DNA of 64,000 nucleotides from an uncultured Solirubrobacterales bacterium (GTDB lineage Bacteria; Actinomycetota; Thermoleophilia; Solirubrobacterales; 70-9), in contig CAWGOE010000004.1 in the NCBI GenBank assembly GCA_963824215.1, positions 137,629 through 201,628 of the forward strand, written 5' to 3'. The position numbers and the translations under genes are program-made. Below, in pieces: positions 31,091 through 49,615 of this stretch (the first letter of the stretch is position 1; each line of letters opens with the position of its first letter). The notes beneath the pieces are model-generated. The model worked only from the letters and a program-made list of their open reading frames with translations, did not search any database and was not told the origin of the DNA.

Positions 31091-31408
31091 ATGTCTGAGA
31101 ACCAAACCGAAGTGCTCACCGAGGACGACGTCTTCGAGGCGCTCGAGGAGGTCATCGATCCCGAGCTGGGGCTCGACTTCGTCTCCCTCGGCCTCGTCTA
31201 CGACGTCAACATCGAGGACGAAGACGTCTACGTCACCTTCACCCTGACTACGCCGGCCTGCCCAATCGGCCCCCAGGTCTCCGAGCAGATGAAAGAGTTC
31301 GTAGGCGACCTCCCCGGCGTAAGCGCCGTCCACCCAAAGATGATCTTCGACCCCCCCTGGTCCCCAGAGATGATGACCGAGGACGCCAAGTTTGCGCTGG
31401 GCTTCTAG
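31091..31408 (+). CDS. sufT: DUF59/SufT-like Fe-S cluster assembly protein
   Basis: EALEEVIDPELGLDFVSLGLVYDV...TLTTPACP is the DUF59 (MIP18) signature. Its last roughly 40 nt are the integration target repeated at 45543 and 49587. Confidence 0.85.
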   Translation: MSENQTEVLTEDDVFEALEEVIDPELGLDFVSLGLVYDVNIEDEDVYVTFTLTTPACPIGPQVSEQMKEFVGDLPGVSAVHPKMIFDPPWSPEMMTEDAKFALGF

Positions 31409-31447
31409 GCAGGGTTTGCGGGGTCATAGGGGGTCAATCGGGGTCTA
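31369..31447 (+). repeat. Direct repeat 1 (attL-like): 3' end of sufT-like gene plus 39 nt downstream
   Basis: gatgatgaccgaggacgccaagtttgcgctgggcttctaggcagggtttgcggggtcatagggggtcaatcggggtcta is nearly identical to 45543-45621. The 29-nt core is also present at 49587-49615. Confidence 0.85.
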
Positions 31448-31468
31448 TTTCATCCCCATCCCATCCCC

Positions 31469-32176
31469 ATGAGCATCCCCACGGACAACAATGCGAGTGC
31501 TTTCTCGGAGGCTCGAAGCGCACCCGACCAGTTACTCTCGGTGGTCGAGGTTGCGCGCCTGATGGGGGTGGGGATGCCAACCGCGGTCGGATACGTGATG
31601 GACATGGGCCTTCGCTCTCTTGACGAGGGCGAGCTGATCAAGGCTGAACGTCTCGAGGTTCCCCTGATCCGTCGCAGCGAGTTGGACCGATTTGCTGAGG
31701 AGCTAAAGGCGGAGCTGCCTCCGGCTCCGGCCCCTCAGGCGCCAGCCAACCTGGTCGAAAATGAAGCATTCCTGGCCGCGTACCACTTCGTCATGTCGTT
31801 GCAGGCGGGCGACTTCGATGGCGTCTGGAATACGGCGAGTCGGGCGTCCAAAGAGGCCCTGGAGAGTCCGAAGAACTTGGCGAGCTGGTGGAGCCGATAT
31901 CTGGACATTGCGAATGCCTCGGAGCCGGGAGTGGCATCGGGGGTTTATTCGATAGACGACGAGACTGTCGCGATCAAGTACATGGCTGACACCCCCGCCT
32001 CTGGTGGATACATGAAAGTGGGCACTATCGTCGAGGCAACCCCACTTGCACTTGTCCTCGACCCTGAGGGCTGGCGCTTGGATCAGCCAACCCAGGAGCG
32101 CTGTGCCGAGTGGCGCCATATCGTTGGCGGTCCTCAGCCCGAGGGAGGCTCAGGTTCTGCAAATGGGCCAAACTGA
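31469..32176 (+). CDS. Hypothetical protein with N-terminal excisionase/MerR-like HTH
   Basis: LLSVVEVARLMGVGMPTAVGYV is an HTH-like segment. The C-terminal half has no recognisable motif. The 3' end overlaps the convergent gene by 43 nt. Confidence 0.55.
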   Translation: MSIPTDNNASAFSEARSAPDQLLSVVEVARLMGVGMPTAVGYVMDMGLRSLDEGELIKAERLEVPLIRRSELDRFAEELKAELPPAPAPQAPANLVENEAFLAAYHFVMSLQAGDFDGVWNTASRASKEALESPKNLASWWSRYLDIANASEPGVASGVYSIDDETVAIKYMADTPASGGYMKVGTIVEATPLALVLDPEGWRLDQPTQERCAEWRHIVGGPQPEGGSGSANGPN

Positions 32177-33423
32177 TCGGTCGGAGCCTTGCCGAGGATT
32201 GCCCGCTCGCGGAGTCGCGTGTAGGGGAGTGCCAAAAGCATGAATTCCCTTACCGGTTCGTGCAGGAGCGCGTCGGCCATCGCGCGCGAGTAGCTCTCCT
32301 CCACAGTCAAGAAGGCGAGAAAGGCACCGAGTGCAACGATGCTGAGCAGTGCCGCGACCTCCAAATAGGGGTCGGCGGGAATCGACAAGTGCCACCAGAG
32401 GACGGTTACCGGGAAGTGAGAACTCTGCGACTGACTCCAATCTCGCGCCACGTCGGCTGGGACCAGGATCAGGCCCAGCGCGTACAGGTACCCGAAGACG
32501 CACACGCCAAGTCCCGCCAGCATCACCACCGTCCTCACTACCACTGCTCTTTTTAGTGGCCGCCGAACGATCTCGGCCAGGTAGGGGGAGAAGTCCTCGA
32601 CCAGGGAGGGATCGAAGCCGCTCCGAAGCATCCCCCGGCCGTTGTTCAGGACCCAGCTACCGGCATAGGGGCCAGCGAGTCGTCCCACCAGCGGGTCAAC
32701 CGCTCGCGCGGAGTCCGAGTCTGCGGCGAGCGCCGCTCCGGTGTCAGAAACCACGTTCGGGAGTGATCCGACCAACCTGCCGATCAAGACCAAGACCAAT
32801 GGTATGAGGATCAGTATCGCGAGCCAGATCAAGCGCGTCGCTTCCGCAGCGTCCGCCACCCGCCAGAGGTCGGCGGTCACCAATGGCGCAAATAGAAGCA
32901 GCAGCACCAGAGGGAACAGCAACGGGATGCTACGCAGCAGCGCTTTGCGGTCGACGCCGAGTCCGTTCTTGACGAAGCGAACGATCAGGTAGAGCCCGCC
33001 AGTGACTGCAAGCGCGACTCCAAAGGTGTCGCGCAAGCCTGCGAAGCCATACTCGATCGCTACCAGCACCGCCAGGACGATCCAGCCCACCATGATGGAA
33101 ATCGCGGCTTGCGGCCATCTGCTGCCGAGAACAAGGACCAGGACAAAGAGCGCCATCGTCACGAACGCGGTCCATCCCATGGGCAAAGACAGCGCGAATC
33201 TGGCGCTTAGCGCGTAGCCAAGGCTAAATGCGAGCGTGAAGAAAAATCCGGTCCAGTTGGGACCGAGCACCGGTGCCGGCGGTCTCTCCTCGCTCAGGCA
33301 AAGGCGGTTGTAGCCGGCCTTGGTGAGCGCGTCAGCGAGGTGGTGCCGCAGCTCTTCCTCGGGCGGGCGGGGCCCAAGCGAAGAGATTCCACCCTCGTCG
33401 TCTGCGGATAAGTCAGTGGCCAT
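32134..33423 (-). CDS. Polytopic membrane protein (about 9-10 TM), unknown function
   Basis: 429-aa ORF with many hydrophobic helices (FFFTLAFSLGYAL, FVTMALFVLVLVLG, IMVGWIVLAVLVAI, LLFPLVLLLLFAPL, ...). Confidence 0.65.
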   Translation of the reverse strand: MATDLSADDEGGISSLGPRPPEEELRHHLADALTKAGYNRLCLSEERPPAPVLGPNWTGFFFTLAFSLGYALSARFALSLPMGWTAFVTMALFVLVLVLGSRWPQAAISIMVGWIVLAVLVAIEYGFAGLRDTFGVALAVTGGLYLIVRFVKNGLGVDRKALLRSIPLLFPLVLLLLFAPLVTADLWRVADAAEATRLIWLAILILIPLVLVLIGRLVGSLPNVVSDTGAALAADSDSARAVDPLVGRLAGPYAGSWVLNNGRGMLRSGFDPSLVEDFSPYLAEIVRRPLKRAVVVRTVVMLAGLGVCVFGYLYALGLILVPADVARDWSQSQSSHFPVTVLWWHLSIPADPYLEVAALLSIVALGAFLAFLTVEESYSRAMADALLHEPVREFMLLALPYTRLRERAILGKAPTDQFGPFAEPEPPSG

Positions 33424-33480
33424 ACTTTCGATGCGTTGTACTCATCGCAGGTTTCAGCACAAACGCTGAGTGAATATATG

Positions 33481-34617
33481 TCAGGGCCGTTCCAAATATG
33501 AATCCAGCAACCGACGCGCTTCGACCTCGCTGCCGGGCATCAGGTGCCCGTAGCGGTCGAGCGTGATCGTGATCGTCGCGTGCCCCAGATAGGTGCTCAG
33601 GGTCTTGGCGTTGAGGCCAGCGGCGATTCCGATGCTGGCGAAAGTGTGGCGACCCTCGTGGAAACCGAGCGGCTTGAGCCCCGCCTCCTCCCATCGCGCG
33701 TGGGTGCGACGGCGCAGGATTCCGGGATCGGTTGGCCACTCGGGGTTGTTGGCACTCGGGAAAAGAAGGCCGTCGCTCGGGTGATCAAGCAGGACAAGAT
33801 GATCGACCAAGAGCGCAGCGAGCCTGTCGATGATCGGCACGCTACGCGGCTTACGGGACTTCGTTGGGATGAACTGCTTGGTTCCGCGATCCCAGCTCCG
33901 GTGGACGTGAATCCAGCCGCCATCGAGATCAACGGCGGCAACGTCGAGCGCCAGCAACTCCCCGAGACGTAGACCGGCGTAGACGGCGAGACCGAGCGTG
34001 GCCCGGTCCTTGGGCCGCATCGCGGCTATCAGTCTCTCTGCTTCGGCGGGGGACGCGATCCGGTCACGCGTCTTCTGTCCTGCCGGAAGCCGAAGTCCGA
34101 CGCAGGGATTCACATGGACCCACCCGCGCAGTTCCGCGAAGCCGATCAAGGCCCGCAGCGCCGCCACGATGTTCCTGATCGTGGACGGCGACCTGTCCGC
34201 CGTCGTCAGTCCGTCAACCCAGCGTTGGAGTTCTGGACGCTGAAGGCGGCTGATCCGCTTCGACCCCAGCTCGGACACCGCGTGATTGTTGAGGTCGTGC
34301 TCGTAGCCCCGAATGGTGCTCGGCTTGTAGGCGTGCCCGCCTTTCTGACGGAACGTGTTCGACTTCATATCGGCGATGAATTCCTCCGCCGCTTCGGAGA
34401 CGGTCGGCCCGGCTGCGGCCGACAGCGTGCCCGCCTGGAGGCGCGCTTGCGCGTCTACCCGCCAGGACCGTGCCTCGGCTAGTGATCCCGTCCACGGCCC
34501 CCGGATGTACTTGCCGACGGACTTGTCGTGGGCGGTGCCCCTGTATCGCTTCTTCCCCTTCGTGTCCTCTCGGACTTCGATCCCTTGGAGGGCCGGACTA
34601 CGCTTCTTAGTGCTCAT
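33481..34617 (-). CDS. int: Tyrosine recombinase / phage-type integrase
   Basis: SAM-like N-domain. Catalytic contexts GLRLGELLAL (R), HEGRHTF (H-x-x-R) and LGHATITITLDRYGHL (H...Y). Confidence 0.9.
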   Translation of the reverse strand: MSTKKRSPALQGIEVREDTKGKKRYRGTAHDKSVGKYIRGPWTGSLAEARSWRVDAQARLQAGTLSAAAGPTVSEAAEEFIADMKSNTFRQKGGHAYKPSTIRGYEHDLNNHAVSELGSKRISRLQRPELQRWVDGLTTADRSPSTIRNIVAALRALIGFAELRGWVHVNPCVGLRLPAGQKTRDRIASPAEAERLIAAMRPKDRATLGLAVYAGLRLGELLALDVAAVDLDGGWIHVHRSWDRGTKQFIPTKSRKPRSVPIIDRLAALLVDHLVLLDHPSDGLLFPSANNPEWPTDPGILRRRTHARWEEAGLKPLGFHEGRHTFASIGIAAGLNAKTLSTYLGHATITITLDRYGHLMPGSEVEARRLLDSYLERP

Positions 34618-34907
34618 GGAGTGTCCTCTCTATGGGCCATGCCCCCGGCCGGTGCAACGGCGCGGGGGCGCTTTGTCACTACCGGCATTTTAGACGCCAG
34701 CCTGGTCGTCGCGGTCAATGTGGCGTTGCCGGCCAGCCACTTTTCGATCTCTGGGACAGGGATGATTCGCAGGCTTCCACGACGAACGATCCGCAGCTCG
34801 GGTTGAACGTGGCGCTTGAATGACGACTCGCTCATCCCGACCGCTTCGGCGGCCTCCTCGACGGTCAGGCCGAGGCGAGGGGGTGAAGGGCGGTTTGGCA
34901 TGGGCAT
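34614..34907 (-). CDS. xis: Excisionase-family HTH DNA-binding protein
   Basis: LTVEEAAEAVGMSESSFKRHV...RIIPVPEIEKWL. The stop overlaps the int start. Start at Met 34907 or 34901. Confidence 0.75.
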   Translation of the reverse strand: MPMPNRPSPPRLGLTVEEAAEAVGMSESSFKRHVQPELRIVRRGSLRIIPVPEIEKWLAGNATLTATTRLASKMPVVTKRPRAVAPAGGMAHREDTP

Positions 34908-34931
34908 TCCTGTTGTCCACCAGGGATGTCG

Positions 34932-34954
34932 TTTGCATCGGGCATTTGCATCGG
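34932..34954. promoter_or_regulatory. Two direct TTTGCATCGG repeats in the xis / relaxase divergent intergenic region
   Basis: tttgcatcgg at 34932-34941 and 34945-34954 (13-nt register), about 25 nt upstream of the xis start. Confidence 0.4.
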
Positions 34955-35253
34955 ATACATCCGAAAACTTCCGCGAACGCCCCTGGAAATTCGCGCCGGT
35001 CCTCGACGCCACCGCGACGGCGAAACAGCCACGAACCCACAGCCAGGGCAACCCAAGCCACGATCAGCCAGTCCGTCAACCACCACCAGCAAGGCAAGAG
35101 CCAAGCACGAGAGTCAGGCACTCATGGCAGCTATTCAGCCATGAGAAGCCACCCAGACCGAAGCTCCAACAGCCAACAGCAACCACCCTCACGCCCTATC
35201 ACTTTGTTAAGAGATCGATGCATTGAGCGCTCTCCACAGACATACCCCGTGGA

Positions 35254-38200
35254 ATGCTCTCAATCGGAAAGCTCGGCAAAGGACAGGAGCACTACTACCT
35301 CGACAAGGTCGCCGAAGGCGCTGAGGACTACTACTCCGGCGAGGGCGAGGTCGCCGGGGAATGGCTCGGCGACGCCGCCGAGGACCTTGGCCTCTCCGGG
35401 GAGGTCGAGGCAGCCCAGCTCGAAGCGATGCTGACCGGGCGCAACCCGGTCGATGGAGAGCCGCTAGTCGGGATGCGCGGCGTCCCTTCCAGCGGATCGG
35501 TCCCAGGCTTCGATCTCACCTTCTCGGCTCCCAAGTCTGTCTCCCTGCTGTGGAGCCTCGGCGGGCCCGTCGCGGCGGTCGAGGTCAAAGCCGCCCACCG
35601 CGAAGCCGTAGGAGCCGCCCTCGACTACATGCAGCGCGAGGCGTGCTGGACGCGGCGCGGAGCCGGAGGCTCGGAGTTCGTCCAGGGCAACGGCTACCTG
35701 GCGGCGGGCTACGTCCATCGCTCCTCGCGCAACGGCGATCCGCAGCTCCACACCCACGTCCTCATCGCCAACGCGACCAAGGCCGAAGGTCGCTGGACCC
35801 GTCTCTACCACCCGGCGATCTACGACCACGCCAAGACCGCCTCCTACATCTACGAGGCCCACCTTCGCCACGAGCTCAGCCGCCGCCTGGGCGTCGAGTG
35901 GCAGCCGACCCGCAAAGGCATCGCCGAGATCGCGGGCTTCGCCGACGAGCACCTGCGGGCCTTCTCCACCCGCCGCGCGGAAATACTCGAGGCGGCGGGC
36001 GCGGATGCCTCGGCGCGTTCGATGCAGGTCGCGGCGCTCGCCACCCGCAAGCCGAAGGAGCGCGACGTCGGCCACGGCGAGTTGCTTGTCCGATGGCGAT
36101 CGAGGGCCGAGGAGATTGGCTTGGACCGCGAGGCGATCGCGCGCACCTTCGACTCGGAGGCAGCGCTGAGGATCGACCGCACCGACGCGCCCGCCATATC
36201 GGAGGCGCAGTTCGGCCGCGCCGTCACGGCGGCTGCGTCCCACTTCGACCGCCGCGAGGCGATCCAGGCCGTCGCCGACGCGCTCCCGCAGGGTGCGCCG
36301 GGAGCCGAGGTCGAGCGCCTGGCCGACGGCTTCCTCGCGTCCGAGTCCGTGATCCAGATCGCGGAGGGCGCCAAAGGCCCCCGCTATACGACTCGCCGCG
36401 TTTGGGAGCTTGAGCGCGAAGCGCTGGCCGCTGCCGAGCGAATGCGAGCGCAGGGACCGGACCCGGCAGGCGAGCTGATTGCGGCGCGCGTGATCCACGC
36501 TCGCCCGACCTTGAAGGCAGACCAGCGCGAGATGATCCGCCGCCTCTTGACGAGCCCCGAGGGGGTCGCCGTCGTGATCGGCGAGGCGGGCAGCGGCAAG
36601 ACCTTCGCCATTGTCGCCGCAGCGGAGGGCTGGGCACAGGCCGGGATCGAGCTGCGCGCCGCAGCGCCGACCTGGCGAGCTGCGAACGTGATGCGAGCCG
36701 AGGGCTTGCCCGCTTCGAGCATCGCCAGCTTGCTCTTGCAGCTCGACCGCGCCGAGCACGAGGGCAGCGAGGGCTTGCCGCATGAATCGGTCCTGCTGAT
36801 CGACGAGGCCGGGATGGTGGACTCGGCCACCCTGGCGCGGCTCACCTCTCACGCCGAGCAGGCGCAGGCGAAGCTCGTCCTCGTCGGCGACCCTGAGCAG
36901 CTTGGCGAGATTGAGGCGGGCGGCCTGTTTCGGGCGCTCGCCGAGCGTGGCGAGCCGATCCACCTTGACGAGGTGATCCGCCACCGTCACGACCTCGACC
37001 GCGAAGCCGCGAAGCGGATCAGGGAGGGCGAGGGGCGCGAGGCGCTGAGTCTTTACCGATCCGAGGAGCGGGTGACGGTTGCGCCCGATGCCGAGGCCCG
37101 CCGCGAGGCAATGGTCCGCGACTGGCACGAGGCATTCGAGCGGGGCGAGGACGCCGTGATGGTCGCCAAGCAGAACGCCGAGGTCAGACGCTTGAACGAG
37201 GTCGCGCGAGAGGTTCGCCGCCAGGCCGGGCAGTTCGGAGCGCAGGAAATCGAGATCGGCGAAGCCACCTTCGCCGCCGGCGATCAGGTCATCACCCGCG
37301 TCAACGACCGCAGCGCCGAAGTCTTCAACCGGGAGCGCTGGCGCATCGCCGAGGTCGACGCCGCCGAGCGTCGCGTCGTCCTCGACGGGATCGACCACGC
37401 GAAGCGGGTCGAGATCGGCGACGACTATCTCGTGCGGACCAACCCGCACTCAGAGGCTCCCGCGCTCGAACACGCCTACGCCGTTACGACCTATTCGGCG
37501 CAGGGCACGACCGTGGACCGCGCCTTCGTCGCGGCCGACCCCTCGATGGACAAGCAGGAGCTATACGTCGCCGCCTCCCGCAGCCGCGAGGAGACCTTCA
37601 TCTACGCCACGCCGGAGATTCAGACCCATCGAGAGGAGATCGCGCCGCCCTCGCCCCACCTACGCGAGGGCATCCCGCACATCGGCGAAGCGGCCGAGCG
37701 CGACCGCTCCCAGCTCGCCGCTCACGAGGTGGCGCTGCGCTCGCAGTTCGCCGGCCTGCCGAGCGAGGAGCTGGTCGCCCGCCGCGACGAGCTGCGAGCC
37801 GCCGCAGGCAACGAGGAGAGCCGGGAGAGCCAGCGCCGCATGTTGCAGGAGCGGATCGAGCGCGCCCGCGAGCACATCGACGGCTTCGAGACCGAGCGCG
37901 AGGCAGCGCAGGCGCTACCGCGCCGCCAGAGGCACGACGAGCTGGCGCGCATCGACGCCTGGGAGGCGAGATCGCGCAGGCAGACCACACAGCTCGAAGC
38001 CGAGATGCAGGAGATGTCCGTCGTCGGGCAGGCCGCGCGCCGGGAGCTGGCGGTCGCCGAGCAGGTTCTCGCGCAGCGGTGCGAGCTGGCGGTCATCGCC
38101 GCGCGGATCTCCGCGCCCGTCTACGTCAAGGCCGAGCTGGGGGAGAGGCCGAGCGATCCGGCCAAGCGGAAGGCTTGGGATCGCGGTGTCTCTCAGATCG

Positions 38201-38391
38201 AGCGCTACCGACAGGAGCACGGGGTCAAGGACCCGAACAGGGCGCTGGGCCGCGAGGCGAAACGAGGAGCCGAGCGAGCACGGCAGGAGGCGACGTGGCG
38301 ACGAATCCGAGAGGCACAGCGGGCCCTTGGCCTGGGGCAGCACGCGGCGAGAGCGCGTCAGCTCGGTAGAGGGCTGAGCATTGGCAGGTGA
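35254..38391 (+). CDS. traA: MOBF-family conjugative relaxase (TrwC/TraA-like) fused to a RecD-like helicase
   Basis: N-terminus MLSIGKLGKGQEHYYLDKV...DYYSGEG, the HRSSRNGDPQLHTHVLIAN histidine triad, Walker A GEAGSGKTF and LLIDEAGMV. Confidence 0.9.
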   Translation: MLSIGKLGKGQEHYYLDKVAEGAEDYYSGEGEVAGEWLGDAAEDLGLSGEVEAAQLEAMLTGRNPVDGEPLVGMRGVPSSGSVPGFDLTFSAPKSVSLLWSLGGPVAAVEVKAAHREAVGAALDYMQREACWTRRGAGGSEFVQGNGYLAAGYVHRSSRNGDPQLHTHVLIANATKAEGRWTRLYHPAIYDHAKTASYIYEAHLRHELSRRLGVEWQPTRKGIAEIAGFADEHLRAFSTRRAEILEAAGADASARSMQVAALATRKPKERDVGHGELLVRWRSRAEEIGLDREAIARTFDSEAALRIDRTDAPAISEAQFGRAVTAAASHFDRREAIQAVADALPQGAPGAEVERLADGFLASESVIQIAEGAKGPRYTTRRVWELEREALAAAERMRAQGPDPAGELIAARVIHARPTLKADQREMIRRLLTSPEGVAVVIGEAGSGKTFAIVAAAEGWAQAGIELRAAAPTWRAANVMRAEGLPASSIASLLLQLDRAEHEGSEGLPHESVLLIDEAGMVDSATLARLTSHAEQAQAKLVLVGDPEQLGEIEAGGLFRALAERGEPIHLDEVIRHRHDLDREAAKRIREGEGREALSLYRSEERVTVAPDAEARREAMVRDWHEAFERGEDAVMVAKQNAEVRRLNEVAREVRRQAGQFGAQEIEIGEATFAAGDQVITRVNDRSAEVFNRERWRIAEVDAAERRVVLDGIDHAKRVEIGDDYLVRTNPHSEAPALEHAYAVTTYSAQGTTVDRAFVAADPSMDKQELYVAASRSREETFIYATPEIQTHREEIAPPSPHLREGIPHIGEAAERDRSQLAAHEVALRSQFAGLPSEELVARRDELRAAAGNEESRESQRRMLQERIERAREHIDGFETEREAAQALPRRQRHDELARIDAWEARSRRQTTQLEAEMQEMSVVGQAARRELAVAEQVLAQRCELAVIAARISAPVYVKAELGERPSDPAKRKAWDRGVSQIERYRQEHGVKDPNRALGREAKRGAERARQEATWRRIREAQRALGLGQHAARARQLGRGLSIGR

Positions 38392-38395
38392 ACCA

Positions 38396-38509
38396 CCCGA
38401 CCTACCGGCGATTGAAGCACCGCGAGGGCGGCCGTCAACCCCCTGCGGGGGTCGGGCGCAAGCGCCCTTGACTGCCGCCCTCGCGGTGCTGTTCTGCGGG
38501 TAGGTCGGG
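38396..38509. repeat. Branched inverted repeat downstream of relaxase (candidate oriT or terminator)
   Basis: Outer arms cccgacctacc 38396-38406 / 38499-38509. Inner 22-bp arms 38417-38438 / 38468-38489 (1 mismatch). The tip holds two mini-hairpins, ccccc-tgc-ggggg and gggcgc-aa-gcgccc. Confidence 0.8.
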
Positions 38510-38524
38510 ACGGGAAGGTGGCGA

Positions 38525-38794: not shown

Positions 38795-38877
38795 GTTGCT
38801 CTCTCAGCGGTTTGCGTGGCGCGGGCGAGGCGACGTAGAGGGCGACCCTGCCCGCCCCCTGCGTCCCCGACGTGGGA

Positions 38878-39666: not shown

Positions 39667-39692
39667 TTCGAGCGGTCGGTGCTATTTGAAAT

Positions 39693-41820: not shown

Positions 41821-42576
41821 GTGACTGGCGACGCGAAGGCCACCTATGAGGCGATGGCATCCGTCTACGACATCTTCACCGCTCACTATGACGACGAGCT
41901 TTGGATAGGCGAGCTGGTTTCCGCGCTTGAACGCAACGGCTTGAGCGGAGAGCGCCTGCTCGACGTGGCGTGCGGGACCGGAAAGAGCTTCCTGCCGATG
42001 CTCGACCGGGGATGGGAGGTGACTGCGTGCGACATCTCGCCCGCGATGTTGGCGCGCGCACGGGCAAAGGTCGGAGAGGCAGTGCCGCTGTCGGTGGCTG
42101 ACATGCGAGGCTTGCCCGAGATCGGCAAGTTCGATCTTGTCTGGGCGCTGGACGATTCGATCAACTACCTGCTCAGCGAGGTCGAGCTGCTCAAAGCCCT
42201 GGGCGGGATGGGGGCAAATCTCGCCCCGGGAGGTCTGCTGCTATTCGATGTCAACACCCTGGTTGCCTATCGCAGCTTCTTCGCCGAAACCGCTGTGGTC
42301 GAGCGCGCCGGGCGGAGGCTTGTTTGGCGTGGTCAGACTGCCAGCGATGCGGAGCCTGGGTCGATCTGCGAAGCGGTCCTTGAAGAGGATGGAGGGCCGA
42401 CGAAAACGCATGAGCATCGGCAGCGCCACTTTGCCGATGCTGAAATACGCTCAGCCGTCGAGCGCGCCGGCCTCACCCTGGTCGATGTCTACGGCCTCTA
42501 TACGGACGCGGTACTGAGGCAGCCGCTTGACGAGGGCGCTCATACGAAGGCGGTCTACATCGCTGGGCGGGAGTAG
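41821..42576 (+). CDS. Class I SAM-dependent methyltransferase
   Basis: Motif I LLDVACGTGKSFLPML and post-I VTACDISPAML. GTG start. Confidence 0.85.
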   Translation: MTGDAKATYEAMASVYDIFTAHYDDELWIGELVSALERNGLSGERLLDVACGTGKSFLPMLDRGWEVTACDISPAMLARARAKVGEAVPLSVADMRGLPEIGKFDLVWALDDSINYLLSEVELLKALGGMGANLAPGGLLLFDVNTLVAYRSFFAETAVVERAGRRLVWRGQTASDAEPGSICEAVLEEDGGPTKTHEHRQRHFADAEIRSAVERAGLTLVDVYGLYTDAVLRQPLDEGAHTKAVYIAGRE

Positions 42577-42680
42577 TGGAGAGAAACCACTCCCCTATTA
42601 CATGGCATTGGGGTAGGTTGTCGCGGACGTTCTCCGAGGTGATTTTCCTAAGAGATTGGGTTCAGCAAACGGGAGGCGGA

Positions 42681-43037
42681 ATGGCGAGATACGTATTTCT
42701 GTTCAAGGCCGAGAGCGCTGGCGCGGGCCAGATTCTGTTCGGTGCATCTGAGGCGGCTGAGCGGCAGGTCGATGCAATCGAGCAACTCGGCGGCTCCGTC
42801 GAGGTGCAGCACTTCGTGACGGGCGCTCACGATCTAGTCCTCATCGCAGACCTCCCGAGCGAGGCGGCCAGTCTCGCCGTTTCGCTTGCAGCCGAGGCTG
42901 GTGGATTTCAAGTGGACACGATGCGAGCGTTCGATGCGGCGGAACTTGATCAGGCCCAAAGCCTCGTCCCAGAGGTTCGTGATTGGTTGCGGGGGAAAGT
43001 GGCGTCCGCCGTCGACGAGGAGCCGGGGAAAGCGTGA
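42681..43037 (+). CDS. GYD-domain protein
   Basis: MARYVFLFK...VTGAHDLVLIADLPSEAASLAVSLA...VDTMRAF fits the GYD family pattern. A GGGAGG RBS lies upstream. Confidence 0.65.
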   Translation: MARYVFLFKAESAGAGQILFGASEAAERQVDAIEQLGGSVEVQHFVTGAHDLVLIADLPSEAASLAVSLAAEAGGFQVDTMRAFDAAELDQAQSLVPEVRDWLRGKVASAVDEEPGKA

Positions 43038-43270
43038 ACGTTTTCGAGGGGCTTGGACTGATAGTGGCGGGCGGCGGCGGCCGACCCCCCGGCGGGCCTT
43101 GGTCCGGGCCTTTTCCCCCGAACGATCCGCAAAAGCCACCGGTTCCCAATAGCCCTCTGCCGACGCCTCCTAGTCCCCCCGTTAACGCGGGTCGGGGTGG
43201 CCAAGCGGGTGCTGCGGCGGGGGCAGGGGGTCTAGGAGGGGGAAATCCCTTCGGTTTTCGGGTGAAGTAA
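43034..43270 (+). CDS. Possible Pro/Gly-rich small protein (78 aa)
   Basis: GTG 43034 overlaps the GYD stop (GTGA). Low-complexity sequence (GGGGRPPGGPWSGPFPP...GGLGGGNPFGF). Coding status uncertain. Confidence 0.3.
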   Translation: MNVFEGLGLIVAGGGGRPPGGPWSGPFPPNDPQKPPVPNSPLPTPPSPPVNAGRGGQAGAAAGAGGLGGGNPFGFRVK

Positions 43271-43385
43271 TGACGGTGCTCCTCGGCGGGCGAAATGTCT
43301 GGAGGGCGAGTTGACCTGCTGGTAGCGTGCATTGAGAAGCTCGCTGGCTCAATACTGCGTTAACGAGGCTCGAAGCAGTTGGTTT

Positions 43386-43604
43386 TCAGCCCTGAATTGC
43401 CCGACCACGCGCCACAGTTGACAGGCGCGAGTCCGGTTCGAGGATGGCGGCGTGAAGGTCACCGTCGCTGATGCGAATCGATCCCGGCGTACCGGCTGAC
43501 CGGCGAATATCCACGCTGCCTGATTTCAATTCGCTTGGCCCCATCCGAACGGTGATGACGGCGGGCATCAGAAGCCCCTTGCGAGGGTCCGACCTGACGT
43601 CCAC
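43386..43604 (-). CDS. Possible small hypothetical protein
   Basis: 72-aa ORF (or 60 aa from MPAVITVRM...). No motif. Weak support. Confidence 0.25.
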   Translation of the reverse strand: MDVRSDPRKGLLMPAVITVRMGPSELKSGSVDIRRSAGTPGSIRISDGDLHAAILEPDSRLSTVARGRAIQG

Positions 43605-43613
43605 AATGGAGAG

Positions 43614-44309
43614 ATGCGTCTTAGCGAACTCGACAGGACGGCGAGGATTTTCGCCGAAATCGAAAAGCCCAATCGGTTTCTCTCCTCCCTGGTCGGACCG
43701 TCTTCGACGACCTCAACCGTTCAAAGGATCATCGATCAACGGGTGAAGCAGGACCGAATGCTCGGACTGGCAAGGCCGTCGATGTTGGAGCAGATCGTCA
43801 CGGGACAGGCCAGGCGGGACCGCTTGCTTAAGAATGTGACTGAACCGACGGCAGTCGAGCGGATGATGGGGCAGGTAGCGCTAACCGACCGGCTCGTTTC
43901 ATCTTCGGTCCTTGACCAGATTTCCAGGCAGCAGCGCATCTTTGACGACCTGACCCGGAGGACGACGCTGCTCCAGACGCTTGTCACCGGGTCGGCTTCA
44001 CTGCCTTCGGAACTGATCGGCCGCGCCGATCGATGCCGGGAGGATTTGCAAGACGAAATTGCGGAAGAAGTCGCCGTCGCTGTAGATCTGCCAAGCGCTG
44101 TGCCGGATGTGCTTGGGCGTCTCGCCGACGAACGCGAAGCGATCCTCGTCTGCCTGAAGCGAATCGGGTTCATAGGGGCGGCTGGGCACTACTTTGGCGT
44201 TCAGATCTCACCGGTCGTGCTGGGCTTGGTAATCGTCTTCCTGGTCATTGGTGAAGTCGCCGACGAAATCCTCACGGAACGTGCTGGCCGCGAGGCCGAA
44301 GCAGCCTGA
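43614..44309 (+). CDS. Hypothetical protein with internal roughly 20-aa repeats and a C-terminal TM helix
   Basis: Repeated ..DR(L/M)...S.L(E/D)QI.. units. C-terminal VVLGLVIVFLVIG. Confidence 0.55.
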   Translation: MRLSELDRTARIFAEIEKPNRFLSSLVGPSSTTSTVQRIIDQRVKQDRMLGLARPSMLEQIVTGQARRDRLLKNVTEPTAVERMMGQVALTDRLVSSSVLDQISRQQRIFDDLTRRTTLLQTLVTGSASLPSELIGRADRCREDLQDEIAEEVAVAVDLPSAVPDVLGRLADEREAILVCLKRIGFIGAAGHYFGVQISPVVLGLVIVFLVIGEVADEILTERAGREAEAA

Positions 44310-44330
44310 CGAACACGGCCTAGAACCAAG

Positions 44331-44364
44331 AAAGCCCCGAGGAATGGAGTCGTGGCCTCGGGGC
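44331..44364 (+). terminator. Hairpin after 43614..44309
   Basis: agccccgagg ... cctcggggct: 10-bp GC-rich stem about 20 nt after the stop. Confidence 0.5.
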
Positions 44365-44450
44365 TCGCCAGTTTGGGATTACTGCGCTAACGCAGCTCGA
44401 AGCACTACGGGTTTCGCAAGTTCGCATTGCGAATGCGTCGGCGAAGCGGA

Positions 44451-44804
44451 TCAGGCGGTGCGCGTCCGTACTCTAAGTTCGACCTGGTAGTCGGCGGGAA
44501 CCGAGACAGTGTGATGTCCGGGTTTGGGCTTTGGGCGACGAGCCAGCAGGCGCTTGAGTAGGGCCAACCCACCGCCGCGGGGTATGGCAGCAATCTCGTT
44601 CCCGTCGGGATAGACGACCACGAGCGGCCGATAGTCGGCGAGTGCTTGAGATATCAAGTCCGAGGCATCTGGGGAGTCTGCGGGGATGAGCACAGTCCTA
44701 TTCGGATAGCGCTCGTCTGCCTCAGGATCGGCAGCGATACGGCCGAGAAGATCGAAGGCAGCATCGGTGCCCGGCGTGTTCTTGCTTTCGCCTGGTTTCT
44801 TCAC
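44451..44804 (-). CDS. Hypothetical protein (117 aa)
   Basis: ORF directly downstream of vapC on the same strand. No motif. Confidence 0.45.
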   Translation of the reverse strand: MKKPGESKNTPGTDAAFDLLGRIAADPEADERYPNRTVLIPADSPDASDLISQALADYRPLVVVYPDGNEIAAIPRGGGLALLKRLLARRPKPKPGHHTVSVPADYQVELRVRTRTA

Positions 44805-44811
44805 AGCTCGG

Positions 44812-45231
44812 TCAGCGGATCAGTCGAACCTCGACGCCGAGGTAGGGCACGTCCTCCCAGGCTTCATCGGTCGTTAGCGCAGGGACACCGAGCCGCTCTG
44901 ACAGAGCGAGGCACGCGCGATCAGCAAGCGATAGCCCTCGCTGCTTTGTGATCGGTCGAAGTTGCGCAAGGGCAACGCAGTCCGCCGCCGTGAGCGGTTC
45001 AATCGTCAGCGCTCGTTTGGAGCCTTCCGCTTTGCGCAGCTCCGCTGCCGCCGTGGCCGGATCGCCACCTCGCTCCGCGACCTTTGACAGCACCTCAGCC
45101 AGGTTCACCACGCTGATCGCTGCCCCATCTGCGATTGCGTCGGTTACCACCTCGCTGCCCTCCTCGTCGTTGAGGAGCGCCAGGACCGCGGAGGCATCGA
45201 GGACAGATGCCGCCGATTCAGCGTTTGCCAC
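44812..45231 (-). CDS. vapC: PIN-domain ribonuclease toxin (VapC-like)
   Basis: VLDASAVLALLNDEEG..., ...VNLAEV..., LSLADRACLALSERLGVPALTTD carry the PIN acidic residues. Overlaps the upstream antitoxin gene. Confidence 0.85.
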   Translation of the reverse strand: MANAESAASVLDASAVLALLNDEEGSEVVTDAIADGAAISVVNLAEVLSKVAERGGDPATAAAELRKAEGSKRALTIEPLTAADCVALAQLRPITKQRGLSLADRACLALSERLGVPALTTDEAWEDVPYLGVEVRLIR

Positions 45232-45412
45232 GCCGCCGCGCTTCTTCGGCGGCCTCTCGGTCTTCAGCCCGCGCTTCGGCGCGCCGCTCTGCGATCAGCT
45301 CGTCCGAGATATTGCGGCCCGCTGTCCGGTCCGCGAACAGACCGCGCATCCGCTCCGCAGCCTGCCGGCGGCGTTCTACTTCCGAGCGAGCGTGTTTGGT
45401 TGCGTGGGCCAT
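45218..45412 (-). CDS. vapB: Type II antitoxin (VapB-like, 64 aa)
   Basis: Small charged ORF MAHATKHARSEVERRRQAAERMRGLF... overlapping vapC by 14 nt. Start at the internal Met of ORF 45218..45601. Confidence 0.65.
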   Translation of the reverse strand: MAHATKHARSEVERRRQAAERMRGLFADRTAGRNISDELIAERRAEARAEDREAAEEARRRGKR

Positions 45413-45542
45413 GCTTCCCTCATGGTACCCGCAGCCGCAGAAGCCACTGCACTCTGCGAATTGGCCCTCGCATCCCCACCGCCATCCCCACGACGCGCAG
45501 AAGTTGCCGATTTGCAGGGCCGTTACGTCTAGCCTTCCACGT

Positions 45543-45621
45543 GATGATGACCGAGGACGCCAAGTTCGCGCTCGGCTTCTAGGCAGGGTTTGCGGAGTCA
45601 TAGGGGGTCAATGGGGGTCTA
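45543..45621 (+). repeat. Direct repeat 2 (junction between the two tandem elements)
   Basis: 79 nt nearly identical to 31369-31447, including the post-stop arm. Encodes the orphan ...MMTEDAKFALGF* tail. Confidence 0.85.
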
Positions 45622-45774
45622 GAAGGTCGTCCAAGCTGAAGCGGGTCGGGTCCCGCACCGCCGCAGACTGCCCGCCGGGCGTTTCCACGTCGCGGCGGAA
45701 CTCAGCGATGAACTGGCTCAACTCTTTCAGCGGAGGTCAGAGCGAGCTTGTCCTCGTAACCGGGGCAGGTGGAC

Positions 45775-46083
45775 GCGAGCTCGCGATCATCGCCGCCCGA
45801 ATCCCCCCGCCCGCCTACGTCAAGAGCGAGCTGGGGAGAGGCCGAGCGACCCGGCGAAGCGCAAGGCATGGGATCGCGGCGTCTCACAGATCGAGCGCTA
45901 CCGCCAAGAGCACGGCATCAAGGACCCGAGCAAAGCCTTGGTCGCAAGGCGAAACGAGGAGCCGAGCGCGTCCGCCAGGAGACCGCGTGGCGGCGGCTAC
46001 GGGAGGTTCAGCGAGTCCTAGGCCGTGGGCAACACGCGGCGAGAGCGCGCCAGCTCTGCAGAGGGTTGAGCATCAGGCGATGA
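45775..46083 (+). pseudogene. Relaxase C-terminal remnant with frameshifts
   Basis: Nucleotide homology to 38080-38391. The peptide pieces ELAIIAARIPPPAYVKSELG and KAKRGAERVRQETAWRRLREVQRVLGRGQHAARARQLCRGLSIRR fall in different frames because of single-nt deletions. Confidence 0.8.
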
Positions 46084-46092
46084 GGAAGGACA

Positions 46093-46192
46093 CCCCGACC
46101 CACCGGCATTGAAGCGCCGCGAGGATGGCCGTCAACCCCCTGCGAGGGTCGGGCGCAAGCGCCCTTGACTGCCACCCTTTGCGGGTAGGTCA
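46093..46192. repeat. Degenerate copy of the branched inverted repeat
   Basis: ccccgacccaccggcattgaagcgccgcgaggatggccgtcaaccccctgcgagggtcgggcgcaagcgcccttgactgccaccctttgcgggtaggtc aligns with 38396-38509, with a deletion in the right arm. Confidence 0.75.
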
Positions 46193-46426
46193 GAGCCTGA
46201 GGATTGAGGCGGCGCGGAGCGCAGCGTCTGTCGGTTCGATGACGCCACTGTTCTCCCGGAGCAGATCAGAAGTCGCGAGATCGCGGATTGCGTTCTCGAG
46301 TTGTTCATCTTCGCCTCCCTCTCCAGAAAGCTCGCCGATCAGCTCTGAGGGCGCTAGGTGATCAGGATGTCGTTCAACTACGTACAGAAGGACGGCGAGT
46401 TCGAATTGCCTTGGATCGAGCGGCAT
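46190..46426 (-). CDS. Small wHTH-like protein, paralog family member 3
   Basis: ...LAPSELIGEL....EDEQLENAIRDLATSDLL....VIEPTDAALRAA. Confidence 0.6.
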   Translation of the reverse strand: MPLDPRQFELAVLLYVVERHPDHLAPSELIGELSGEGGEDEQLENAIRDLATSDLLRENSGVIEPTDAALRAASILRL

Positions 46427-46429
46427 TGC

Positions 46430-47203
46430 TTAGCGTCTCTTGGTCGCCGAAGCCTTCTTGCCATCCTTGGCGTTTCTGGCGGACAGAAAGCTCGCGAGGA
46501 AGACAGTTGCAGTGGTTGGTCCTGCTGCCTTGCCGTTGGCTTTGGATAGTCGCTTGTTCGCTTTGGCCTGCAGCTCCAGGACGGACTCCACGAAGTCTCT
46601 GGAGAGCTGCCCGAATTCATCGACCCCGAGCGCGTCGAGAATCAGCGGCATCCAGCTCAGCTCGCCAGGTGGGTGGTCGAAGACACCAGCCTTGATCGAA
46701 GCCGAGGCATCCTCGAAGAACTCTTGGAGGATGGCCAATGAGATCGTCTTTCGAATTGCGGGCGGGAGGTTGTCCCATGCATCAGGCGGAATCAGGGTGG
46801 GAGCGGCTGCCCGGTAGAAGTGCTCGACTGCTCCGCGGCGCGGAATCTTGTGATCCGCCACGATCAGGCGGCATTCCCTCAGCACGCCGACGTGATAGCT
46901 GACTTGGCTAAGCCCTTCGTCCAGCTCCTCAGAGATTTCCTTTGGGCTGGCGACGCGTTCGCAGAAGATCGCGAAGATTTTGACGCGCTCCCTCTTTGAC
47001 AGCGCTTTCATCTGCCTGTAGTTGACCAGCTCCCCTCGGGGGCGCTTTGGTCGATTGCTGGCCGGTTTCCTTCCGGTTGCTTTCGGCACGCCTTTTGCTG
47101 ATGGCCCACTTCTCTTACGCGCAGCTTTCTTCTGGGGAATTGGGATCGCCTCCATCCTTCTTTTGGTACGGCAAATTTGAGGCGCTCCAAAGTACGGGTT
47201 CAA
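46430..47203 (-). CDS. ArsR-like wHTH protein with extended C-terminal domain and basic tail (paralog of 38878..39666)
   Basis: VKIFAIFCERVASPKEISEELDEGLSQVSYHVGVLRE...RRGAVEHFYRA. Start uncertain. Confidence 0.7.
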   Translation of the reverse strand: MNPYFGAPQICRTKRRMEAIPIPQKKAARKRSGPSAKGVPKATGRKPASNRPKRPRGELVNYRQMKALSKRERVKIFAIFCERVASPKEISEELDEGLSQVSYHVGVLRECRLIVADHKIPRRGAVEHFYRAAAPTLIPPDAWDNLPPAIRKTISLAILQEFFEDASASIKAGVFDHPPGELSWMPLILDALGVDEFGQLSRDFVESVLELQAKANKRLSKANGKAAGPTTATVFLASFLSARNAKDGKKASATKRR

Positions 47204-47341
47204 TTGGGACTAAACGAAGCGAATTTCCTAGAGCTTCAAAGAAGCTGTAATTTGCCTTTAATAAATCTGTGCATTACGGCGGGAGCCCAATTAGACGACC
47301 GGCGACGCGCCGAGAACGGCGGGCCGCCGGTCCATGCGCTG

Positions 47342-47401
47342 CTAGGCCGACTTGGTAACTGAAACAGCCGGAACTATCTGACTGACGTTGCTGATCTGCA
47401 C
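47342..47401 (-). CDS. Conserved 19-aa micro-ORF (VQISNVSQIVPAVSVTKSA, GTG start), copy 2
   Basis: GTG 7 nt after GGGAGGAGGTGA. Same length and spacing as copy 1. Followed by the hairpin gaccggcg...cgccggtc. Confidence 0.55.
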   Translation of the reverse strand: MQISNVSQIVPAVSVTKSA

Positions 47402-47547
47402 GTTGCCTCACCTCCTCCCAGGGATTAGCGCTAAATGCTCAGATTATCTAGATCATTTAGCGGCTACTCGCTCATCGGGCGTGCCGCGGGGCAGCAGATC
47501 ACTCAGGAATCGGCCGACAAATCGGCTAGGCTGGTGCGGTCAACACA

Positions 47548-48177
47548 GTGCAAGGAGGAGACTTGGCCGCAGGTAATCGCACCGCGAGAAAGGAGCTGCA
47601 CGAGCTACTTGCTCAGCTCGTGGCGTGCATCAATACTGTCAAGGTCCTCACGGTGCTCGCCGAACGTGCGGCTAGCCCGAAGGAAATAGGCGAATCTCTG
47701 GGCTTGAAGACGCCAACTGCCAGCTATCACGTTCGCAAGCTGCTGGACCTGGGCCTCGTCGAGCTAGTTAAGGAGGAGGATGTTGGCGGCGTCATACAGC
47801 ACACCTATCGAGCGATAGTTCGGCCGCTCATCAGCACCGAAGAGTGGGAGGGCTTGGATGTTGCCGAGCGGCAGCAATTCTCAATTTGGATCGTGCAGTT
47901 GATTTTGGCCGATGCGGCTAAGTCTTTTCAGGCCAAGGTCTTCGACGCGCGGTCAAGCCGCCACCTCAGCAGGACCCCCATGATCGCCGACGATCAAGGC
48001 TTCAGCGAAGTTGCTGACATCCAGAACAAGGCGCTAGAAGACATCATTCAAACGCAAGCCGTCATCGCCGACAGGCTTGCTCGCAATGAAACGATGGGGA
48101 CGCACATGATTGCGGCCATGATCTGTTTCGAGCTTCCCGGGCGAAGCGAGGGGCCCGCATCGATTGTGGAGGAATAG
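47548..48177 (+). CDS. ArsR-like wHTH protein with C-terminal extension
   Basis: VKVLTVLAERAASPKEIGESLGLKTPTASYHVRKLLDLGLVE...IQHTYRA. Start is GTG 47548 or TTG 47563, after AAGGAGG. Confidence 0.7.
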   Translation: MQGGDLAAGNRTARKELHELLAQLVACINTVKVLTVLAERAASPKEIGESLGLKTPTASYHVRKLLDLGLVELVKEEDVGGVIQHTYRAIVRPLISTEEWEGLDVAERQQFSIWIVQLILADAAKSFQAKVFDARSSRHLSRTPMIADDQGFSEVADIQNKALEDIIQTQAVIADRLARNETMGTHMIAAMICFELPGRSEGPASIVEE

Positions 48178-48202
48178 AAGCCCGCTCCTATGACGGGCGC
48201 GG

Positions 48203-48451
48203 TCAGTTGTCCGACACGACTTGCTCGCGGCCCAGGCGAACAAGCTCAAGGCTTTCGACCTCAAGCGCGGCTGCGAGTCTCCGCAGTACATCCCAGCTTG
48301 GGTTCCCCTTTCCGCGCTCAATGCTGGAGAGGTAGGTCCAGTGAATCTCGGCGTGACTCGCCAGGGCCTCGATCGTCATGTCGCGCTGTTCTCGGAGAAG
48401 CCGGATAGCGGCTCCGAGCTGCTCGGCAGTCGGCGGGTGAGAAGGAGGCAC
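48203..48451 (-). CDS. XRE-family HTH regulator
   Basis: LGAAIRLLREQRDMTIEALASHAEIHWTYLSSIERGKGNPSWDVLRRLAAAL. Confidence 0.8.
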   Translation of the reverse strand: MPPSHPPTAEQLGAAIRLLREQRDMTIEALASHAEIHWTYLSSIERGKGNPSWDVLRRLAAALEVESLELVRLGREQVVSDN

Positions 48452-48620
48452 TGAGGCGCAAGAGCCTCCCGCGATGCCACTCGTCTGACCATAGTTTATA
48501 CTCTATGTTCTGAATGAGGGAGGAGAGTCGGCGGAGGGCAGGGGAGGCGAGCGCGGGAGTCGGGGGGCCGTTCATCGACGGGACGGTTGCGCTTGCTCTT
48601 CCCCGGCCACACCAGATTTC

Positions 48621-49022
48621 TTGGTCGCTTGCATGCTGCCGCGTCTGGTTCTCGGCTGCGTCGCCTGGCCCCAAATCGTGTCCCGGCCGTTTGGCCTCCC
48701 ATCAGCGGTCGGGGCACAGCCGCTCGAGGTGGAAGCCGTGAGTTCGTCGCGGCTCGAGACGATCGTGAAGCACGATGGCCGTCTGAACCTCCTGTGCTGC
48801 CTTCTGGACGGGGGGCCTCTGTCGGTCCCCCAGATCGCTGCGCGGATCGGCGAGTCCTTGCAGGCTGTGCGCTATTGGATAGGTTTGCTCGACGCGTTCA
48901 GCCTTGTTGAAAAGCACGCAGGGATGAGCGGTGGGGAGACGTTGTATTCGGCTACGTTGGACCGGCATCCCGAGTGGGTTCGGGAAGCCGTAGCCCAGCA
49001 TCGCCCGCGAGCGCTTGACTGA
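48621..49022 (+). CDS. ArsR-like wHTH protein
   Basis: GRLNLLCCLLDGGPLSVPQIAARIGESLQAVRYWIGLLDAFSLVE. The start is uncertain; a later GTG near 48730 is possible. Confidence 0.55.
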   Translation: MVACMLPRLVLGCVAWPQIVSRPFGLPSAVGAQPLEVEAVSSSRLETIVKHDGRLNLLCCLLDGGPLSVPQIAARIGESLQAVRYWIGLLDAFSLVEKHAGMSGGETLYSATLDRHPEWVREAVAQHRPRALD

Positions 49023-49205
49023 GAGCGGTGCGGGCGTTGTCCAGCCTGGATCGAATCGTCCACCCCTTAGGCCATGCGACTCACTCTCGCTTCGTGAGCG
49101 TCGCGATCTGGAAACCTTCGCCTTACGATTCGGCCGGGCGTGTCTATCGGGCCGATTGCCCGCCGTCGCGTGTGGGGGGCCGGCTCTGCCCCTAATGTGC
49201 GTTGC

Positions 49206-49397
49206 ATGGGAGGTATTCCGCTATCGGAGTGGTCAGGGAGTGGCGCAACTCAGCGGCTTGAGGCCACCATTCGGGAGTTCAACGAGGAGACCAGCCGGCA
49301 GACGGCGACGATGATTCAACTGACGAGGTGGATTGTCGTCTTGACCGTGGTGCTGGTTGTCGGTCTCATTGTCCAGATCATCATCGCCTTGGTATAG
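49206..49397 (+). CDS. Small tail-anchored membrane protein
   Basis: Internal Met of ORF 49140..49397. C-terminal TM WIVVLTVVLVVGLIVQIIIALV. Confidence 0.4.
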   Translation: MGGIPLSEWSGSGATQRLEATIREFNEETSRQTATMIQLTRWIVVLTVVLVVGLIVQIIIALV

Positions 49398-49586
49398 CCA
49401 TTCTCGGCACGCTTGAGATCTAGTGGTATCGCCGAATTCCAGCCGGAGCGCGGGGCGGCAGGCTCGTGGACCGGGACGCTTACTGCTGTGTTCCCTGGCA
49501 GGGGCAGGGTCTCCATTGCTGGCCCCACTTTCTCAGCGCGGCGATTATCTGGATGAGCGTTGTCCCGCCGATGAATTTGGCATCGT

Positions 49587-49615
49587 CGAGGACGCCAAGT
49601 TCGCGCTTGGCTTCT
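49587..49615 (+). repeat. Direct repeat 3 (attR-like core; displaced original 3' end of the sufT-like gene)
   Basis: cgaggacgccaagttcgcgcttggcttct followed by TGA and native flanking sequence. Encodes the orphan ...EDAKFALGF*. Confidence 0.8.

Follow-up and report, generated by a model that had tools for sequence, protein, structure and literature searches.

Integrative mobilizable elements (IMEs) that use a tyrosine integrase are well documented in the 3' ends of protein-coding genes, including guaA, rpsI, rplL, trmE, and others, as illustrated by ATE-1 in guaA, IMESag-rpsI in rpsI, and SGI1 in trmE (PMC5704250). For IMEs and for integrative and conjugative elements (ICEs) there is an established model in three steps, in which an element integrates, then decays, and a second element integrates into the att site of the resident (PMC5704250). 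In Streptococcus thermophilus, ICESt1/ICESt3 and a cis-mobilizable element (CIME) form such an array by tandem accretion at the fda 3' end (Pavlovic 2004; Bellanger 2011; both as cited in PMC5704250). As summarised in that review, it has three direct att repeats and is explained by integration, decay, and renewed integration; its intact partner is an ICE, and its CIME keeps functional attL and attR sites and is mobilized in cis. Here, we analyse a window of 64,000 nucleotides (64 kb) from an uncultured Solirubrobacterales bacterium (assembly GCA_963824215.1, contig CAWGOE010000004.1, positions 137,629–201,628), in which the 3' end of a sufT-like gene is followed by two related elements delimited by three direct repeats. 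The repeat arrangement and the explanation that we propose for it are those of the streptococcal array; in contrast to the latter, the intact partner (element 1) has the content of an IME, and the second element (element 2) lacks the arm motifs at both ends. A tandem insertion in which element 1 is an intact IME and element 2 a fixed relic is our preferred account of the locus, with a probability of roughly 0.85.

The target is a gene on the + strand at 31091–31408 (start at 31085 or 31091) encoding a SufT-like protein (Pfam PF01883, FeS_assembly_P/DUF59, E 2.9e-23). Its homologs with 87–97% identity in Solirubrobacterales carry the name metal-sulfur cluster assembly factor, and an exact-protein look-up of the window's own SufT returned zero matching records. 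Repeat comparison and pattern searches place the gene tail, encoding EDAKFALGF* each time, at three positions on the + strand: R1 (31369–31447), with its att core at 31378–31406 within attL; R2 (45543–45621), with its core at 45552–45580 at the junction of the two elements; and R3 (49587–49617). These are the coordinates given in an initial annotation of the window made from its sequence, which listed R3 without the last two letters of its stop (49587–49615), and the repeats are beyond chance: when up to 3 mismatches are allowed, the 29-nt core is found at three places in the window, always on the + strand, and in none of 100 shuffles. R1 and R2 are identical at 75 of 79 nt (95%), including 39 nt past the TAG stop, and R3 has just the 29-nt core in common with them, with 1–2 mismatches. 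The stop of R3 is TGA (49615–49617) and lies 3 nt from the stop (49621–49623, minus strand) of fxsA (49621–50103, - strand; PF04186, E 4e-38), the native convergent neighbour that adjoins sufT in relatives with an empty site. The final codons of the sufT-like gene are now provided by element 1. Between the repeats, GC content at third codon positions (GC3) is ~0.70–0.79 in most element genes and 0.87 in the relaxase, compared with 0.88–0.93 in the native flanking genes.

The meaning of these repeats emerges from a comparison set of 126 related loci from Solirubrobacterales (class Thermoleophilia) genomes and metagenomes, referred to by L numbers. The integrase of element 1 has 891 homologs at E<=1e-20, with 61–98% identity among the 120 matches listed; where a source is named, it belongs to Solirubrobacterales. 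Seeded with this integrase, a scan of genome contigs gave 39 loci, nearly all in metagenome-assembled genomes (MAGs) of Solirubrobacterales. The initial annotation had proposed to search for the core near integrases, and in 27 of these 39 loci the sufT 3' end indeed lies on the strand opposite to int, 0–5 kb downstream of it. It stands beside int in 21 of the 22 near-full-length integrase matches, the exception being a contig end. A second core copy occurs on the far side of the element in at least ten int-seeded loci, and fxsA lies there in eight loci. The native order in relatives is AddAB-like genes, a 151-aa gene, a HAD gene, DUF7064, sufT, a variable region, fxsA, WS_DGAT, and lytB. Another scan, seeded with SufT and thus unbiased as to the presence of an element, returned 80 metagenome loci, of which 77 were usable. 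Relatives with an empty site, on whose existence the initial annotation had let its reading hang, turned up in seven of the 77, with the sufT and fxsA stops 2–103 nt apart (2 nt in L087, 4 nt in L060, 17 nt in L072, 28 nt in L109, 32 nt in L051, and ~100 nt in L096 and L104). The family arm follows the sufT stop directly in 30 of the 77 (~39%), with a full int in five of these and int fragments in eight; the other SufT-seeded loci have different inserts or short flanks.

The unit of gene tail plus arm, 77–79 nt long, is 85–97% conserved behind sufT in occupied loci, and in empty sites the match to it ends at the stop codon. Furthermore, R3 and the next 5 nt are identical to the empty site of L109 at 34 of 34 nt, and the tight spacing of R3 and fxsA recalls that of sufT and fxsA in L060 and L087. 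It follows that the arm is element-borne, as had been claimed for the 39 nt shared by R1 and R2 and as its presence in dozens of occupied loci and in none of the empty ones bears out, and that R3 is the displaced native tail. These comparisons identify the sufT-like 3' end as the attachment site of a tyrosine-integrase element family that is widespread in Solirubrobacterales, and confirm the early proposal that the repeats mark site-specific integration. The same proposal stressed that the target is protein-coding rather than a tRNA, which is correct, yet not unusual for such elements. Alternatively, the gene tail might have been duplicated locally, by a process that has nothing to do with integration. 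The existence of empty sites, the adjacency of int and the sufT tail, the recurrence of the same arm behind sufT in the SufT-seeded loci, and the lower GC3 and mobility genes between the repeats refute this idea, to which we give practically no credence.

To define the attachment sites of the family, the flanks of every core copy were aligned and offsets counted from the core start. In about 40 loci the motif RTCCCCAY recurs at fixed offsets, +74, +85, and +97 at attL and -80 and -68 at attR, and the attR arms also hold the conserved sequences GATTTGCAGGG and GTGATGATGAC. Profile hidden Markov models (HMMs) were built for the attL arm from 44 loci and for the attR arm from 11. Element 1 (31407–45551; 14.2 kb, with a core-to-core spacing of 14,174 bp) has both arms complete. 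Its P' arm (31407–31492, + strand) matches attL-arm positions 1–87 (E 2e-26), with RTCCCCAY at 31452, 31463, and 31475 and three GGGGTC(A/T) repeats. Its P arm, that is the attR arm (45458–45551, + strand), matches attR-arm positions 22–115 (E 1e-24), with RTCCCCAY at 45472 and 45484 and both GATTTGCAGGG and GTGATGATGAC, and is the sole strong match to this profile in the window. Element 2 (45581–49586; 4.0 kb, with a core-to-core spacing of 4,035 bp) has a P' arm on the + strand that is truncated (45581–45620; positions 1–40 only, of 87; E 8e-9), and the attR-arm profile has no match upstream of R3. All five positionally conserved RTCCCCAY motifs are thus present in element 1 and none in element 2; of the nine matches to the motif in the window, six are at the ends of element 1 and zero at those of element 2. 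R2 is a hybrid, flanked on the left by the attR arm of element 1 and on the right by the beginning of a P' arm, so that, of three co-oriented cores, the middle one connects the P arm of element 1 with the P' arm of element 2. Such a hybrid site is what the three-step model leads one to expect, and the model fits the array.

The attP site of phage lambda consists of a core plus arm-type sites for the integrase (Int) and sites for the excisionase (Xis), and the att sites of our family resemble it in having short direct repeats clustered in both arms, with helical-turn spacing (10–12 nt) and at a fixed distance from the core. The family has three RTCCCCAY in P' and two in P, and three GGGGTC(A/T) beside the core; the identities of its motifs are unrelated to those of lambda. 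RTCCCCAY would correspond to the arm-type Int sites, a putative role, and Pfam identified no N-terminal arm-binding domain in the integrase. The three GGGGTC(A/T) repeats, with ~10 nt spacing, occupy 31421–31447, past the stop codon and ahead of the RTCCCCAY cluster, and have counterparts at 45595–45621; they are conserved family-wide, also in the truncated arm of element 2, and may serve as Xis sites or as core-proximal Int sites.

The gene content of element 1 indicates an IME. It encodes a full-length tyrosine integrase of 378 aa (33481–34617, - strand; PF00589, E 1.5e-20), whose box residues R, K, HxxR, H, and Y are readable in the translation. The start of int is overlapped by an xis-like helix-turn-helix (HTH) gene (34614–34907, - strand), with a weak match to the excisionase family TIGR01764 (E 0.0016, below the cut-off), which is kept directly upstream of int in 28 related loci. 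Next comes a full-length MobF (TrwC-type) relaxase-helicase of 1045 aa (35254–38391, + strand; PF08751, E 1.8e-81; AAA_30), with an NF041492 MobF score of 261 bits for a cut-off of 100. The integrase, excisionase, and relaxase attributed to this element at the outset were hence recovered, the xis-like call drawing on the TIGR01764 match and on conservation. Past the relaxase stop, at a distance of 25 nt, we found a candidate origin of transfer (oriT), a 75-nt three-way-junction hairpin (38416–38490, + strand; DNA fold -40.8 kcal/mol, z -6.7). The regulators of the element are a winged helix-turn-helix (wHTH) protein (38878–39666, - strand) and an ArsR-like protein (40430–41749, + strand). The latter gene has an internal 630-nt tandem duplication (40595–40894 vs 41225–41524, 77% identical) that gives a two-domain regulator. 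The cargo comprises a methyltransferase (41821–42576, + strand), a GYD protein (42576–43037, + strand), orf231 (43614–44309, + strand), and, at the right end, a VapBC-like pair with a PIN toxin (44812–45231, - strand; PF01850, E 1e-14) and, upstream of it, a short antitoxin candidate seen in the translation (45218–45412, - strand). The PIN protein is 100% identical in L053. Between attL and int there is variable cargo: orf235 (31469–32176, + strand) and orf429, encoding a 429-aa multi-pass membrane protein (32134–33423, - strand), neither of which matches Pfam, NCBIfam, PADLOC, or PHROG. The two co-occur only in L084 (88–92% aa identity); close relatives, among them L021 and L007, lack them.

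Scans with Pfam, NCBIfam, PADLOC, and PHROG, which together covered the likely genes of element 1, revealed no type IV secretion system (T4SS), no type IV coupling protein (VirD4, TcpA), and no VirB4, FtsK/TraB, Rep, or phage structural domain among its open reading frames (ORFs). PADLOC and PHROG gave just generic wHTH and methyltransferase similarities for the cargo, and no defence system was called. We discarded a prophage for want of a phage structural domain, and an actinomycete integrative and conjugative element (AICE) as the identity of element 1 or element 2, since neither has an FtsK-like TraB or a Rep domain. What is present, an integrase with att sites and its own relaxase, without coupling protein or mating-pore genes, is the composition of a canonical IME, and element 1 is one by content; its mobility is predicted, with indirect support from the presence/absence polymorphism of the site among relatives, which is consistent with excision and mobilization. 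In the absence of coupling protein and mating-pore genes, the element would need a helper conjugative system. One could argue that it is self-transmissible, as an ICE or AICE with unrecognized transfer proteins, or that it is a prophage or satellite, since three of its ORFs have no known function and one of these, the 429-aa protein, is a large multi-pass membrane protein. Yet the scans found none of the transfer or phage domains listed above, orf235 and orf429 are the variable cargo that L021 and L007 lack, and a T4SS would not fit in 14 kb, all of which makes self-transmission very unlikely.

Element 1 also shares with canonical IMEs the copy of the gene tail that keeps the target gene intact, the flanking direct repeats, and the toxin-antitoxin module. 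It differs from them in its target, a sufT-like DUF59 gene, and in its host, a member of Solirubrobacterales, represented here by MAGs and metagenome contigs only. The relaxase of element 1 is a MobF, and the 2017 review lists no canonical IME with a MobF relaxase and just one IME from an actinobacterium (PMC5704250); mobilization of element 1 is a prediction. In Actinobacteria, the prevalent relaxase family is MobF (PMC8190616).

The two elements are colinear, in agreement with the original assertion that they are related. Element 2 starts with remnants of a left end and of a relaxase gene (45621–46083, + strand): 144 nt (45621–45764) are 91% identical to the left end of the element in L021, and the last ~310 nt of the relaxase gene (45774–46083) are 83% identical to 38081–38391 of element 1. 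A degenerate copy of the hairpin follows (46108–46178, + strand), 93% identical to that of element 1 over 71 nt, in which the 3' basal strand has diverged; at -20 kcal/mol as DNA (z -0.6) it folds no better than shuffles. Two wHTH genes (46430–47203, - strand; 47548–48177, + strand) are colinear with the regulators of element 1, at ~30–50% aa identity, and the right part, ~1.4 kb of ORFs without known function, reaches R3. At the nucleotide level, the stretch from 46430 to 49586 matches none of the 126 related loci. Direct alignment to the full-length element of L021, whose integrase is 98% identical to that of element 1, reveals at least two deletions in element 2 relative to an L021-like ancestor. 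A clean deletion of 134 nt, directly behind the third GGGGTC, takes out the three RTCCCCAY motifs of the left arm. The sequence then stays colinear with L021 for 144 nt and jumps to the relaxase tail, across a deletion of ~5 kb that in L021 comprises int, xis, and most (~90%) of the relaxase gene. Element 2 thus appears to be the eroded remnant of an element related to element 1.

It had been suggested that element 2 is a CIME, which the Int and Xis of its neighbour could excise alone (R2 × R3) or jointly with element 1 (R1 × R3); co-mobilization would then follow. Several observations favour this: two direct core copies flank element 2; int, xis, and an intact relaxase are missing, as in a CIME; the first 40 nt of the P' arm are kept at 95% identity, with the GGGGTC repeats; and co-excision of CIMEs and ICEs is documented in other systems. 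A better-preserved non-autonomous relative, in L053, even has both arms and an intact hairpin. However, part of the suggestion did not survive. The loss of intact int, xis, and relaxase genes and the retention of both core repeats, R2 and R3, stand; the att sites are incomplete, one arm being cut at position 40 of 87 and R3 being without a P arm, and usable attL and attR sites are not apparent in the sequence. All five family-conserved motifs are missing from element 2, the loss of those on the left being explained by the 134-nt deletion, its hairpin no longer folds, and its cargo is found in 0 of the 126 related loci, with no sign of spread. In lambda-type systems, excision requires arm-type sites in both attL and attR. 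As element 2 lacks such arms, R1 × R2 should be the sole competent pair, and we expect the excision of element 1 alone to be the sole working reaction, R2 × R3 and R1 × R3 being unlikely. A functional CIME is accordingly improbable in our estimation, and element 2 is probably fixed in place. The element of L053 (L053:1087–5772, 4.6 kb at sufT) is, by its sequence, a better CIME candidate: its attL and attR arms are complete, its hairpin is intact, the relaxase gene is reduced to a tail, int is missing, and the rightmost 1.25 kb share 95% identity with the right end of element 1.

How could this array have arisen? We propose that each element of the family brings its own copy of the gene tail, so that insertion would restore the SufT reading frame and push the native tail to the far side, beside fxsA. 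Two related insertions in tandem would then have left an intact IME, element 1, and an eroded element 2, the erosion involving the 134-nt deletion of the arm sites, the ~5 kb deletion of int, xis, and most of the relaxase gene, the missing right arm, and the decay of the hairpin. The hybrid R2, the empty sites, and the colinearity of the elements bear out the tandem accretion put forward in the initial annotation. Because of its heavy decay, element 2 most likely arrived first, and a later element would have integrated into the att site of this resident. We attempted to read the order from the core polymorphisms (TTT..CTG, TTC..CTC, TTC..CTT) and abandoned the attempt, as both orders predict an identical arrangement.

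Some points weigh against this account of a tandem insertion. First, the att structure does not reveal the order of arrival, both orders yielding the same product. Second, position and conservation are the sole basis for regarding RTCCCCAY as putative Int arm-type sites. Third, orf235, orf429, and orf231 have no detectable family and may have a non-canonical transfer function. Fourth, the left flank of R3 has less gene homology than the attR sites of the family, and begins with CGAGGAC instead of GATGATGAC. Given this short homology, another lineage may be the source of the right part of element 2. Element 2 could then consist of the fused remnants of two or more successive insertions, with a left part from the family of element 1, a right part from another sufT-targeting lineage, and a deleted att site that once separated them, a scenario that is compatible with our main explanation. 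Up to ~48.2 kb, element 2 is indeed family-like in its left end, relaxase tail, hairpin, and both wHTH genes, and the segment from 48.2 to 49.6 kb matches nothing, with no family attR feature at the flank of R3. Other integrase lineages (59–65% identity) share this core, and three-core arrays and inserts with decayed ends are present elsewhere, for example in L054 and L053. On the other hand, pattern and profile HMM searches found no residual or cryptic fourth core and no arm inside element 2, and the data are explained equally well by one element whose cargo is divergent and whose right arm was deleted. We therefore hold such a fusion to be possible, with the odds somewhat against it.

For the hairpin behind the relaxase, an alignment of 26 homologs, from full elements and remnants, has a common three-way junction with compensatory changes at 10 of 21 pairs, and GTCAAC, TTGAC, and the 5' ATTGAAGC are near-invariant. 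A search of Rfam with 20–52 kb of the window (E<=1) gave no match, so the hairpin belongs to no described RNA family. A consensus terminator scan did not flag it, and terminator-like sites are no commoner than in shuffles. We favour a role as oriT because of the position beside the relaxase, the sequence-specific conservation, and the retention in several independent deletion derivatives, although no nic site was identified at the copy of element 1; alternatively, the hairpin may act as a 3'-UTR (untranslated region) RNA. The many independent deletion derivatives that keep the hairpin and both att arms include L053, L007b, L052, L037, and L073. In three of them, deletion junctions join a 3' fragment of int to the hairpin (L037 ~9895–10201, L052 ~11352–11612, L073 ~4032–4423), and these differing junctions all lie within ~25 nt of its 5' edge. 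This clustering suggests selection retaining the hairpin, or a deletion mechanism ending there, and the junctions might reflect relaxase-mediated events. A bolder, and in our view rather doubtful, proposal is that the hairpin is the oriT of an undescribed and very abundant family of sufT-targeting MobF IMEs in soil Solirubrobacterales, that the derivatives are non-autonomous hitchers excised and mobilized in trans by the IME, and that the IME in turn needs a conjugative helper. If true, this would amount to three-tier parasitism at one chromosomal hotspot.

Our analysis points to a family of site-specific mobilizable elements, and a busy integration hotspot, in Solirubrobacterales, an abundant soil lineage. 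The novelty lies in the target gene, in the host order, and in the att architecture defined for this family. Literature searches returned, within the library searched, no report of sufT/DUF59 as an att site, the apparent DUF59 matches being DUF5906, and no description of mobile elements of Solirubrobacterales. IMEs in the 3' ends of protein-coding genes and tandem arrays with decayed relatives were already known, and the conceptual gain is small, since ICEs and IMEs accreted in tandem with decayed relatives are a textbook pattern. The conserved arm motifs provide a simple sequence test to tell a putatively excision-competent element from a fixed relic, and the window has both side by side.

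The spacer between sufT and fxsA is a variable hotspot in relatives (L040–L046 and many of L047–L126), often without a recognisable att repeat. Its cargo there includes toxin-antitoxin pairs (DUF433/PIN, HEPN/NTase), AAA_15/DUF3696 ATPases, a protein kinase, HIRAN, DUF488, and MscL. Three-core arrays are seen in other loci too, such as L054. More distant integrase lineages (54–65% identity) occur in L022 and L024, and also in L025, L027, and L028. At least the integrases of L022 and L024 adjoin sufT-tail cores; L022 is without RTCCCCAY motifs, and the int of L024, which is encoded on the same strand as the core immediately beside it, is found at the opposite end of its element.

Elsewhere in the window, an insert of ~9 kb (20860–29879) with low GC (0.57–0.62 vs ~0.70 in the native flanks) separates the 151-aa gene and the HAD gene, which are neighbours in relatives. 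Its edges are 25-nt imperfect inverted repeats (20860–20884 and 29855–29879), and its genes encode a DDE transposase (21107–22708, - strand), an HNH-repeat protein, and an HTH_3 protein. We take the insert for a probable transposon; it represents a second insertion event in the window, independent of that at sufT.

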